The notes beneath the pieces are model-generated. The model was given only the letters and a program-made list of their open reading frames with translations, ran no database searches and was not told where the DNA came from. The position numbers were made by a program, and so were the translations under genes. Of a DNA stretch of 64,000 bases, positions 902 to 60,798 are shown piece after piece (positions within the stretch are counted from its first letter, which is position 1; each line of letters begins with the position of its first letter). Source of the DNA: Candidatus Aenigmatarchaeota archaeon. GTDB taxonomy: Archaea; Aenigmatarchaeota; Aenigmatarchaeia; PWEA01; JACQIF01. Where the stretch lies: positions 640,001-704,000 of the forward strand of contig CP066684.1 in assembly GCA_016432325.1 (NCBI GenBank). Reading direction: 5' to 3'.

Positions 902-1118
902 GGGCCGGTGGTCTAGTGGAAGCGCCTTTTTGCCGCGGCAAAAACCCGCGGGAAATCCGCTGACGCCACAATGACGTCTGCTTTGCATTCGCGAAACTTC
1001 GAAATGAAGTTTCGTACGCACAAAACAGCAGAAGGCCGTGGGTTCAAAGGCAAACGCCTGCGTTTGCATTCCGGGTTCGCCTGTGAATTCAACGCCGAAA
1101 TTCCCACCCGGTCCACCA
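902..1118 (+). tRNA. tRNA-Ala(UGC) with three BHB introns (922-971, 988-1026, 1049-1101); CCA encoded
   Basis: Spliced 75-nt cloverleaf GGGCCGG/CCGGTCC-A-CCA; anticodon arm TCTGC TT TGC AA GCAGA; BHB helices GTGG/CCAC, TTTG/CAAA, TTCA/CGAA (one mismatch). Confidence 0.9.
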
Positions 1119-1130
1119 ATATTTTAAAAC

Positions 1131-1209
1131 GTGGACCTTCGAATGAAATTCGAAAACTTCGAACCGCCGTTCGAAGACCTTTGAAACCGCAGTTTCGTTG
1201 GGTCCACCA
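1131..1209. repeat. Hairpin cassette ending in a copy of the tRNA-Ala 3' end (GGTCCACCA)
   Basis: GTGGACC...GGTCCAC stem; GGTCCACCA at 1110-1118 and 1201-1209. Confidence 0.7.
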
Positions 1210-1244
1210 CCATTGTTATATAATCTGTTCGGTAAAGTGATATC

Positions 1245-1685
1245 ATGAACGCAGGAAATGACGTGTTCCCACGCGGCGTCGAAATCGTGAGCGGCGCGAT
1301 AATAAGGAGGGATGGAAAGATTCTGCTGACGAAATCTCCAAAATGGCATAACAAGTGGGTGCTTCCCGGCGGACATATAGAGGCTGGCGAACGCATTCTC
1401 GAAGCCGCCATGCGTGAAGGAGAGGAGGAAACGGGACTGAAGTTGAAGCCCGTGACTATCTTGCTGTTCGGCGAGCTCATTAATTCCAAGGATTTTCACC
1501 GTCCGGCCCACTTCATCTTTTTCGACGGTATCTTCGACGTCATCGGCGGCGAATTGAAACTACAGCAGAATGAGCTGACAGAATCCAAATGGCTCACGCC
1601 TGAGGAAGCGCTGAAGCTGGATCTGGCCGATGGCTACCCAGAGACGTTACAAAGATACATTGGGTTCCTGAAATCCAAGGTCTAG
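1245..1685 (+). CDS. NUDIX hydrolase
   Basis: Nudix box GGHIEAGE...AAMREGEEETGL. Confidence 0.92.
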   Translation: MNAGNDVFPRGVEIVSGAIIRRDGKILLTKSPKWHNKWVLPGGHIEAGERILEAAMREGEEETGLKLKPVTILLFGELINSKDFHRPAHFIFFDGIFDVIGGELKLQQNELTESKWLTPEEALKLDLADGYPETLQRYIGFLKSKV

Positions 1686-1688
1686 AAC

Positions 1689-2168
1689 TCACAAAGGCCG
1701 TCGCGCAGGGCGCGGCGGCGCGCTTTCCAGAGGCCGCTTCTCCATTATTTCACGGAGCTGTCCCGAAGATTCTTCGCCTATTCGAACGGTGACCTTAAGC
1801 CTCGGGTCGTTTGGGAACATTTCAGACAGGCTGAGCTCTTTCTCGAAGGCCTTGCCTTTCTCAAATTTGTCGCGGCCGACGACGAAGTACATCGCGCCGA
1901 CAGTTATTTTTGGCGTAGGCGGCGCGAAGCTGTGGCCTACATCCTGCGTGACTTCGTAGCCCACGACGTCGTCGTTCCACGAAATAACCTCAGCGAACGG
2001 CCTTCTTACGGACCCGTTTTCCTTCAATCCAAAAATTTCGTCGTGCGACCTGAACAGGCCGCCTGTAACATAGCCGAAGTTGTTCTCGAGTCTCTCGAAC
2101 ATTCCGACGTATTCCGTGTAGGGCTTGAATTTTGCTATTTCGATTTCGTGGACTTTCTTGCCTTTCAT
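1689..2168 (-). CDS. hypothetical protein (paralog of 2173-2616)
   Basis: Aligns by eye over most of its length with the neighbouring ORF (YVGMF..LENNFG.V.GGL.R.H; EVISWN.DV.GYEVTQ). Confidence 0.75.
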   Translation of the reverse strand: MKGKKVHEIEIAKFKPYTEYVGMFERLENNFGYVTGGLFRSHDEIFGLKENGSVRRPFAEVISWNDDVVGYEVTQDVGHSFAPPTPKITVGAMYFVVGRDKFEKGKAFEKELSLSEMFPNDPRLKVTVRIGEESSGQLREIMEKRPLESAPPRPARRPL

Positions 2169-2172
2169 AACA

Positions 2173-2616
2173 TCACGTCAGTTTTGGCCTCATGCTCTCA
2201 ACGATCGCCAGAAGACGTCGCTTTTCCTTTTCGTCCATTCGAACCGTGACCGCGAGGTCCGGGTGCTTTATTTCCGCCGAGATATACAGTTCCTTCTCTA
2301 TGGGACCCGCTCTCTCCAGTTGCTCCACACCGACGACGAAGTAGACGTTGCCCACCGTCCTTTTCGGAGTAGGCGGAAACGGGCTGTGGCCTGTCTGCTG
2401 CGTGACCTCATAACCGATGACATCTTTGTTCCACGAGATTACCTCCGTGATGGGCTCACGGATGAAGCTGTCTCCTCTGATATCGAAGAGCCTTCTATGA
2501 GTTCTCAGCAGGCCGCTGGTCACGCGACCGAAATTGTTCTCAAGGGCGTTGAACATGCCGACGTACCCGCCGTAAGGCTCGAACTTCCCTATCTCTATTT
2601 TGTGGATCTCTTTCAT
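2173..2616 (-). CDS. hypothetical protein (paralog of 1689-2168)
   Basis: Tandem duplicate, operon-like spacing. Confidence 0.75.
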   Translation of the reverse strand: MKEIHKIEIGKFEPYGGYVGMFNALENNFGRVTSGLLRTHRRLFDIRGDSFIREPITEVISWNKDVIGYEVTQQTGHSPFPPTPKRTVGNVYFVVGVEQLERAGPIEKELYISAEIKHPDLAVTVRMDEKEKRRLLAIVESMRPKLT

Positions 2617-2620
2617 CGCA

Positions 2621-58774: not shown

Positions 58775-58801
58775 ACACACCCCCGTGAGCGCGTTTAACA
58801 T

Positions 58802-59284
58802 TTAAGCTTGTTTCCCGCCGCTCATAAGGTTGCTCTTCTCAACCAAAAGAACCTCTCCAGAATGCGCGTCTATCCTAACGTTGAGAGCCATTCCGCTCGC
58901 CTCCAAGAAAGTGACGTTCCAATACTCCATGCCGTTCTTCTGTACAGCGAGTATTATTTTGACGGGCTTGATTTTAGACTCCTCGGCGTTTCTCAACGCG
59001 GTCTGAAGCGCCGTCGCCTCGTCCGTCTCGGGCATCTTGTCGAACGGAGCATATGTTTTCTCGTGGAGCGGCACGTCTGCGTCCTCCGTCGCAACTCCTT
59101 TCTCGGAAACGGCCACCGGAACCATCTTGCCTGTCTTCGGAACGTAATAGCTGAGGTTCCACGCGTCTATCTTCTGTTTGGGATTGAGCATCACATAGGC
59201 CGAGCAGAAGAACGCGCCTCTGGCTTTCAGCGCCTTGACGTCTGCTGAATCCTCTGCCATTTTCACCGCATCTGCGAGCTTCAT
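58802..59284 (-). CDS. hypothetical protein with PepSY-like C-terminus
   Basis: W.V.F.......V.IDA.SGEV. Confidence 0.7.
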   Translation of the reverse strand: MKLADAVKMAEDSADVKALKARGAFFCSAYVMLNPKQKIDAWNLSYYVPKTGKMVPVAVSEKGVATEDADVPLHEKTYAPFDKMPETDEATALQTALRNAEESKIKPVKIILAVQKNGMEYWNVTFLEASGMALNVRIDAHSGEVLLVEKSNLMSGGKQA

Positions 59285-59334
59285 ACGCCGTCTGCAAAAG
59301 AAGATTATAAATACTTCGTGTACAAAGCGACGCT

Positions 59335-59898
59335 ATGATAGAACGCACGCTCGTACTCATCAAACCCGACGGCGTGGCGCGCGGACTCATCGGAGAGTGC
59401 GTCAAACGTTTTGAACAGCGCGGCCTGAAAGTCGTCGGAATGAAGATGATCCGTCCTGACGCGAAGCTTGTGGGAGACCATTACACAGACGACCTCGAGT
59501 GGCTGACGAGCGTTGGCCGCAAGACCAAAGTTTCGTACGAGAAGAAAGGCATGAAGATGGACAAACCCGATGTCGAGATAGGCCGCTACGTGCGCAAGTG
59601 GCTGATGGACTACCTCGCGTCAGGGCCTGTCGTTGCGCTCGTTCTTGAAGGGCATCACGCCGTGGAGATAGCGCGCAAATTATGCGGCGACACAGAACCG
59701 CGCGTCGCCCTGCCCGGAACGATCCGCGGGGACCTTTCCGTCGAGTCGTACATGATAGGCGACGAGAAGCAGAGGCCCGTCAAGAACGTCGTTCACGCGT
59801 CAGGCTCCGTCAAAGAGGCGGAGAGCGAGATGAAGGTATGGTTTTCCGAGAACGAACTCTGCTCATACGAGCGCGTTGATTGGGCGGCGATACACTAA
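59335..59898 (+). CDS. ndk: nucleoside diphosphate kinase
   Basis: ERTLV.IKPDGV.RGLIG, PGTIRGD, N.VHAS. Confidence 0.96.
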   Translation: MIERTLVLIKPDGVARGLIGECVKRFEQRGLKVVGMKMIRPDAKLVGDHYTDDLEWLTSVGRKTKVSYEKKGMKMDKPDVEIGRYVRKWLMDYLASGPVVALVLEGHHAVEIARKLCGDTEPRVALPGTIRGDLSVESYMIGDEKQRPVKNVVHASGSVKEAESEMKVWFSENELCSYERVDWAAIH

Positions 59899-60362
59899 CC
59901 CAGATACCGCTGCGTGCCTTCCTCTTCCTCGCTGTACTCCTTCCAGTTCTTCTCCATCAGTTTCGTGAGCTCGAGCATCCGTGGCTTGAACTCCTTGGTC
60001 CATGCCGCGTAGCACTCCTTGATGAACTTGGCGACGTTCTCGTCCGTGGGTTCGAAGAACGCCTCAAGCGAACGCCACCTCAGTTCGTGATTTTTTCTGT
60101 ACAGTTCTGCGTACGCGTTGCGCTTGTCGTTCAGCGCGTGCGCCTCGAAAACGTGCGAAGGTGAAGAGCCCTCTGAGAGGAACAATATCGGTTCCAGAAC
60201 CTCCTGCATGGCGGTGAACGTGTCGACTATGGCCTTCTTTACATCTTGCAGAGGCGTCTGCGTCTCTTCTTCGAGGACGAAGCCGAACGTGCTCTCAAGC
60301 TCGTCGAGTTTGGGCAGGCCGAGCTTCGTCTGCAGCTTCTTGAAATCCGTGCGGGAGGACAT
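59895..60362 (-). CDS. hypothetical protein
   Basis: Helical ORF ending RYLG. Confidence 0.7.
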   Translation of the reverse strand: MSSRTDFKKLQTKLGLPKLDELESTFGFVLEEETQTPLQDVKKAIVDTFTAMQEVLEPILFLSEGSSPSHVFEAHALNDKRNAYAELYRKNHELRWRSLEAFFEPTDENVAKFIKECYAAWTKEFKPRMLELTKLMEKNWKEYSEEEEGTQRYLG

Positions 60363-60430
60363 GAAAAGAATGGCCAGACAAGATATTTAATACCGATACT
60401 CCCATCCTTTGGCAAGGGCTGGTGGCCATA

Positions 60431-60513
60431 CACGCTTTTACCGGAAAGATTCGCTTTCCGTAAATACGGAATGCCCTGCATTCCGGTATTTTGAGAAAAA
60501 GCGTGGCAAAAAC
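60431..60513. mobile_element. Type-A hairpin element interrupted by a double-hairpin element (60439-60488)
   Basis: CACGCTTT[TACCGG..CCGGTA]TTTTGAGAAAAAGCGTGGCAAAAAC. Confidence 0.7.
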
Positions 60514-60548
60514 ACGTTTTATACTTGCTCGTCGTTTGTTTTTCCAGT

Positions 60549-60798
60549 GGGCTGGTGGTCTAGCGGTTGCGCCTTTTTGCTGCGGCAAAAACCCGCGGGA
60601 AAAAATACGCCTGCCGGCAGCGCCGCACATGACGTCGCCTTAGGGAACACGATTCCCGGTGAACACATGGCGAATATCGCCGGTTCGAACCACCCTTTTG
60701 CGCGCTCGCGCTCTTCGAGCGCTCGCCTGTAAACGCGCAAAAGCGTGCACGGAAAGTCCGCCTGATGGCGCGACTCGAGAATCCGGCCCGGCCCACCA
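60549..60798 (+). tRNA. tRNA-Val(CAC) with three BHB introns (60569-60628 in the D-loop; 60642-60663 at 33/34; 60690-60781 at 59/60); CCA encoded
   Basis: GGGCTGG/CCGGCCC-A-CCA; TCGCC TT CAC AT GGCGA; BHB helices GCGG/CCGC, CGCC/GGTG, TTCG/CGAG. Confidence 0.9.

Follow-up and report, generated by a model that had tools for sequence, protein, structure and literature searches.

The window analyzed here, a 64,000-nucleotide stretch of a Candidatus Aenigmatarchaeota archaeon genome (GCA_016432325.1, contig CP066684.1, positions 640,001 to 704,000), carries two transfer RNA (tRNA) genes, tRNA-Ala(UGC) and tRNA-Val(CAC), whose D-loop introns open with nearly the same 34 bases. Our analyses reveal that the shared unit is a cassette within the intron and not the whole intron, and that it is one of a set of cassettes that build many of the tRNA introns of this host. 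As a sequence-only reading of the window had described, the 34-mers at 922–955 and 60569–60602 are identical at 33 of 34 positions, the sole difference being base 13 (C934, T60581), and the two matches compare with 0.00 in 100 dinucleotide shuffles of the window. In both genes the first base of the 34-mer is intron base +1, the G of a GCGCC motif, two bases past the D-loop GG. The description of the introns themselves as near-identical holds for these first 34 bases, but not for the full 50- and 60-base introns, which at 77% identity fall short of a whole-intron threshold of 80% or more over the length; the Ala intron and a Ser T-loop intron are 84% alike. Summed contig depth over the 34-mer is ~5x that of its flanks in four source runs (one study), which corresponds to the five genomic copies of the 34-mer and indicates that the repeat is real.

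The 34-mer forms the 5′ part of the cassette, here called cassette A, which is ordered as a GCGCC leader, a pyrimidine tract, a hairpin, a purine tract, an 8-base linker and a mirror purine tract. In tRNA-Ala, cassette A (922–955, plus strand) contains the leader (922–926), five Ts (927–931), a variable core (932–939), five As (940–944), the linker CCCGCGGG (945–952) and a mirror purine tract shortened to three bases (953–955). The Val copy (60569–60605, plus strand) has the leader at 60569–60573, five Ts at 60574–60578, the core at 60579–60586, five As at 60587–60591, the linker at 60592–60599 and the mirror tract at 60600–60605. The pattern of GCGCC, T tract, hairpin, A tract and CCCGCGGG is present in ten genomic copies, all within tRNA introns: seven in D-loop introns (Ala, two Val, Met, two Ser and Arg), two in T-loop introns (Ser) and one in an anticodon intron (Gly). 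That it recurs in ten introns, in three classes of position, does not bear out the view that an entire D-loop intron is what the two genes share. Nine of the copies start at intron base +1, with the Gly copy starting two bases inside its intron, and five have in common, within one base, the core GC(C/T)GCGGC, which is in no copy from another genome. Judged by their sequences, the two window introns are mosaics and not mutual closest relatives. Over all 34 bases the Ala copy matches the T-loop copy of Ser(GGA) exactly, as the Val copy does that of Ser(GCU) over 36 bases, and the 3′ part of the Val intron follows Val(GAC), which is also its best whole-intron match (80%). Because the better matches are to the Ser T-loop copies, a direct transfer between Ala and Val is not indicated. 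Among the 75 introns of the genome, 30 share at least 20 bases and 11 enter cross-isotype pairs at 80% or more; both counts are 0 in shuffles.

The tRNA-Ala(UGC) gene (902–1118, plus strand) lies in the 16S–23S spacer, with the 16S gene upstream and the 23S gene starting at 3786. Its spliced parse gives exons at 902–921, 972–987, 1027–1048 and 1102–1118, a cloverleaf and the pair G3:U70. The D-loop intron (922–971, 50 nt, position 21/22) has a relaxed (HBh′) bulge-helix-bulge (BHB) motif with 4/4 central helix pairs and a 2-bp h′, in which the exon strand GTGG (916–919) pairs with the intron strand CCAC (966–969), a motif that is also in the Val(GAC) D-loop intron. The canonical 37/38 intron (988–1026) is unrelated to the Val introns and its 3′ part is like that in the Ala(UGC) orthologues of genomes G004 and G013, while the T-loop 59/60 intron (1049–1101) belongs to another cassette family. 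The tRNA-Val(CAC) gene (60549–60798, plus strand) has exons at 60549–60568, 60629–60641, 60664–60689 and 60782–60798 by the same parse. In its D-loop intron (60569–60628, 60 nt, position 20a/21) the exon strand GCGG (60563–60566) pairs with CCGC (60623–60626), one compensated pair from Ala and Val(GAC). An anticodon-loop intron (33/34) occupies 60642–60663, and the T-loop 59/60 intron (60690–60781) holds a sister hairpin-plus-mirror cassette (60695–60755). The BHB parse thus upholds the earlier observation that both intron 3′ ends pair with their host exons. Both D-loop introns are predicted to be spliced, with the 4/4 helix and h′ of archaeal introns at noncanonical positions, and removal of three introns per gene leaves complete cloverleaves of 75 and 76 nt with anticodons UGC (Ala) and CAC (Val). 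Neither gene was detected by ARAGORN or Rfam.

The host is a tiny groundwater archaeon with an 875-kb, single-contig genome (90% complete) in which 36 of 37 parsed tRNA genes contain introns. About 42 tRNA genes were located; the parse is incomplete and partly hand-checked, and some isotype labels are uncertain. Introns were called by a cloverleaf-scored spliced parse, which replaced a BHB-only enumeration whose noise was too high. The genome encodes RtcB and a single alpha-type splicing endonuclease, EndA (L012:1474–2079, minus strand), which is 85% identical to a Ca. Aenigmatarchaeota splicing endonuclease. Relative to the M. jannaschii enzyme it contains a 6-residue insert that aligns with the loop of Nanoarchaeum equitans EndA. 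L3-loop alpha4 EndA proteins in DPANN have been tied to heavy tRNA disruption (Kaneta et al. 2018, PMC5829648), and this host resembles those described there in having a single EndA with a loop insert and heavily disrupted tRNA genes; that study contains no description of intron sequence families or cassettes.

Our comparisons support lateral copying between tRNA genes over duplication. A recent duplication of the whole gene followed by an anticodon shift, or an assembly artefact, is a highly improbable source of the match, even though 17 of the first 18 bases of the two 5′ exons agree. Indeed, duplication is rejected because the mature tRNAs are 74% alike, the other introns are unrelated (15/39 and 38/93 for the second and third introns), and the Ala gene has the Ala identity pair G3:U70 and sits in the rRNA spacer. 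Each gene also has host-specific BHB pairing, the Ala(UGC) anticodon intron resembles the intron of Ala(UGC) orthologues in another family, and the fivefold depth over the 34-mer speaks against an artefact. No intron-less allele or strain variant was found in the source-run contigs, though contigs drop rare variants and the result does not show that such variants are absent.

The sequence-only reading had also proposed that the splice helix was adjusted after transfer. However, pairing of the intron 3′ end with the host exon is required in any spliceable BHB intron and so is no sign of adjustment. Comparison of this genome (G000) with a same-genus relative (G001, 73% complete) disfavors that proposal, since two orthologue pairs keep their 3′ ends while the cassette differs. 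The Met D-loop intron keeps its ends (CGC..CTAAA) and the Gly(UCC) anticodon intron keeps its own (TG..CGATGAA), and between these ends both introns hold cassette A in G000 and a different family in G001. The splice helix is thus probably resident rather than adjusted, and the 3′ ends in Ala and Val themselves would likewise be resident. In addition, the Ser(GGA) D-loop site holds cassette A in G001 and is intron-less in G000, providing a filled and an empty site within the genus, and Ala(UGC) orthologues in another family have unrelated introns at the D-loop site, or none. The best explanation of these patterns is cassette turnover in existing introns together with gain and loss of whole introns between near-identical isoacceptors. 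As a separate observation, the D-arm of Ala(UGC) (window 902–980) is Val-like (GTCTA/ATGAC), most Ala(UGC) orthologues seen having GATCA/AGATC. An old gene conversion with Val(GAC) as its source may account for this, which is suggestive only because Ala(GGC) and Ala(CGC) have the same D-arm, both in this host and in other genomes.

A search of 371 genomes of the phylum detected cassette A in 5, and three metagenome contigs also carry it, one of them identical in sequence to a genome match; GCGCC and CCCGCGGG are kept in every distant copy. These copies occupy introns in the D-loop of a tRNA-Ile, the T-loop of a tRNA-Glu and a 16S rRNA (G144:C20, L215), as well as positions just behind tRNA-Leu at its 3′ end (L208) and after a TAG triplet (G309). 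The 16S rRNA copy, from a distant family, stands at the intron start, within one base of the splice site. Viral contigs yielded no cassette match, and two further candidates (L207 and L211) were chance matches. Across distant families, 26 of the 34 bases are invariant or structurally constrained, and the 33/34 identity therefore overstates how recent the event was. The claim of recent lateral spread is consequently retained in part: the 8-base core, confined to this genome, argues for recent copying, while the other 26 bases are uninformative on timing.

The distant copies also bear on the fold of the cassette. In the informative copies, those with C-G pairs within their tracts, the tract that follows the linker mirrors the purine strand in 4 of 4 and is direct in 0, a result expected by chance at about 1e-4 (with fixed composition and independence assumed). 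By its sequence, this order of tracts is that of a class II purine-motif intrastrand triplex, a structure reported to form in DNA and not in RNA (PMC4666352). The possible triples number 5 in Val, 3 in Ala and 6–10 in distant copies; the window copies have all-A tracts only and make no contribution to the fold argument. None of the four informative copies is a direct repeat, although a third tract acting as a direct repeat or as an alternative partner of the T tract is compatible with all-A copies such as Ala and Val. Hairpin-plus-mirror modules in the 42 tRNA genes number 21 in sense and 2 in antisense orientation, compared with 0.6 in shuffles. A loose genome-wide triplex scan gave 68 matches against 54 in the control, which is barely above it, and the excess is confined to tRNA genes.

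Sister cassettes are also found between genes. Four of these begin at a same-strand stop codon, one of them that of endA itself. Two in the window, at 49039–49089 and 12700–12819 (both minus strand), start where the same-strand open reading frame (ORF) upstream of each has its stop codon, the latter with a nested palindromic insert. A hairpin cassette with a nested palindromic insert (63833–63902) is located where a minus-strand pilin-like ORF starts, and two double-hairpin elements stand head to head within a third palindromic element (24150–24250, minus strand). Other palindromes are nested in cassettes, with no target duplication. Moreover, a 54-base palindromic element in polB (L133, G000 C1:40417–40470) adds 18 residues in frame to DNA polymerase B, at a site that is empty in G001 and other relatives. 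The intergenic sister cassettes and the polB palindrome indicate that DNA outside spliced RNAs is reached. Among the 17 copies listed, there is neither a target duplication nor an upstream consensus. Two tyrosine recombinases adjoin tRNA genes and are like ordinary integrases.

How might cassette A have spread? We give an even chance to copying by recombination among tRNA genes, mainly gene conversion, with rare jumps and with a fold-back triplex as a possible promoter. The cassette would spread at the DNA level, mostly by conversion between tRNA genes that enters at the shared 5′ exon and exits within the intron. The host gene would keep its resident 3′ end, and hence its BHB, so that the tRNA would never become unspliceable. 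A few nonhomologous jumps, from D-loop to T-loop and to an anticodon intron, would have seeded new positions, and the cargo would be tolerated because introns are excised. If the three tracts, as single-stranded DNA, do adopt the predicted purine-motif intrastrand triplex, they could make polymerases stall and encourage such recombination. This reading draws on the ten copies in three position classes, five of them with a shared core found in no other genome, on the 54 bases that Ala and Val share at 91% from the 5′ exon into and through the cassette, and on the kept ends and swapped interiors in Met and Gly(UCC). Several observations weigh against it. ViennaRNA favors another fold, with the core paired with the linker, and finds no excess stability, and the Ala copy retains three possible triples only. 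The conserved intron ends are short and in part imposed by the BHB; Ala(UGC) and Val(CAC) orthologues were not found in the 73%-complete G001, and the resident 3′ end is seen for Met and Gly only. An RNA step would be at least as good a fit to the strong preference for the sense orientation and to the way copies start at splice sites, tRNA 3′ ends and stop codons. Finally, searches of the 90%-complete genome for Y1 transposase, TnpB, IS110, serine recombinase and reverse transcriptase found none, DDE families and divergent reverse transcriptases lying outside those searches.

The model of the earlier reading, in which a full intron is copied to a new tRNA site as in Thermoproteales, after which drift at its 3′ end brings it into line with the exon, would account for the nine of ten copies at intron base +1, for the Ser(GGA) intron of G001 and the Ser(CGA) intron of G000, D-loop introns that are alike from the leader through the 3′ end, and for the Ala, Val(GAC) and Val(CAC) helices being one compensated pair apart. 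We nevertheless consider it unlikely. The shared sequence ends after the third tract, the Gly(UCC) cassette sits two bases into an older intron, the ends of which persist in G001, and an unspliceable intermediate would be lethal in a single-copy tRNA. In another account, RtcB would join the 5′-OH end of an excised intron (GCGCC) to an RNA end with a cyclic phosphate, left on a 5′ exon after cutting or on an mRNA or tRNA after cleavage, and the resulting chimera would be written back into DNA. EndA and RtcB are both encoded, the leader adjoins the D- and T-loop splice sites, the 16S splice site, the tRNA-Leu 3′ end and the TAG triplet, and the four intergenic sister copies start at stop codons; the absence of a shared upstream target sequence and the 21:2 sense bias also agree with it. 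However, no reverse transcriptase was found in the genome, one copy in a Lys(UUU) intron is inverted, such junctions can also arise through purifying selection and gene conversion, and the nine +1 copies do not represent independent events, leaving such RNA capture distinctly doubtful.

An element moved in trans by a transposase or recombinase, similar to a miniature inverted-repeat transposable element (MITE) or a repetitive extragenic palindromic (REP) sequence, with introns merely serving as safe havens, would be in keeping with the nested inserts lacking target duplication, the intergenic copies and the in-frame polB insert. It appears improbable, as the five families searched gave no candidate enzyme, both tyrosine recombinases resemble ordinary integrases, and cassette A has no target consensus and, in this genome, resides in tRNA introns in ten of ten copies. 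Beyond the preferred conversion reading, a low probability attaches to a broader idea: cassette A may be a noncoding mobile unit with triple-helix tracts that the cellular splicing ligase, or recombination triggered by the fold, joins to points of RNA processing (splice sites in tRNAs and rRNAs, the ends of tRNAs, and stop codons), and would thus be a transposase-free source of new archaeal introns.

By itself, the Ala–Val match is an instance of a known phenomenon. Transposed tRNA introns of Thermoproteales (Fujishima et al. 2010) include similar introns across isotypes and positions in one genome, as summarized in PMC4090602, which gives the mechanism of their transposition as unknown. Cross-isotype intron sharing at 80% is 28.3% in Thermoproteales and 1.5% in Asgard archaea (bioRxiv 10.64898/2026.10.13.758758), where tests did not identify any general way for introns to arrive; the 11 of 75 introns in this host amount to 15%, from a clustering not identical to the one used in that work. 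The host is like the Thermoproteales families in its similar introns across isotypes and positions in nonduplicate genes, its BHB splicing and its multi-intron tRNAs. Unlike them, it is a DPANN archaeon with a single alpha-type endonuclease, its shared unit is a sub-intron cassette, and its cassettes nest, occur outside tRNAs and carry a three-tract mirror code. The BoxC/PIT/TMECO intrastrand triplex repeats of bacteria are dispersed and linked to genomic instability (Holder et al. 2015, PMC4666352). Cassette A shares with PIT/TMECO a dispersed distribution and the order of pyrimidine, purine and mirror purine tracts. However, TMECO is G/C-rich and always intergenic, with no strand bias and a 3-base second loop, whereas cassette A is rich in A/T, with a GCGCC leader, a C..G linker of 8 bases and a strong sense bias, and occurs mainly in tRNA introns; it has no sequence homology to TMECO, departs from its consensus, and its triplex is predicted only. 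Thus, the cassette acts like Thermoproteales intron transposition without sharing whole introns, and in design is like bacterial triplex repeats without being one of them. Rickettsia palindromic elements and archaeal MITEs are short palindromic repeats found between genes and in frame inside proteins. The 54-base polB insert recalls these, a likeness that concerns the sister elements only and not cassette A; the sister elements differ from them in lacking terminal repeats with target duplication, and a transposase was not found. Literature searches that paired archaeal or DPANN tRNA introns with MITEs or triplexes gave no description of such a cassette. The genome supplies occupied as well as empty sites, inserts nested in one another, and orthologues that agree at their ends but differ inside, making intron arrival testable by strain comparison. 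The mirror-coded cassette yields a concrete biophysical prediction, and a moving cassette with apparently host-bound intron ends offers a lead on how archaeal tRNA introns spread.

Additional features of the window and its surroundings were noted. A tRNA-Ile gene with a UAU anticodon (window 58588–58774, minus strand) is interrupted by three introns, of which two fall within the T arm (at 53/54 and 59/60), and a sister cassette (58534–58587) starts right after its CCA. No TiaS domain was detected in the genome. The few archaea that read AUA with UAU likewise lack TiaS. The 16S rRNA gene (L013, G000 C1:637095–639272) is about 700 bases longer than the model and the 23S rRNA gene (window 3786–6989) about 200 bases longer, and this extra length suggests rRNA introns or inserts.

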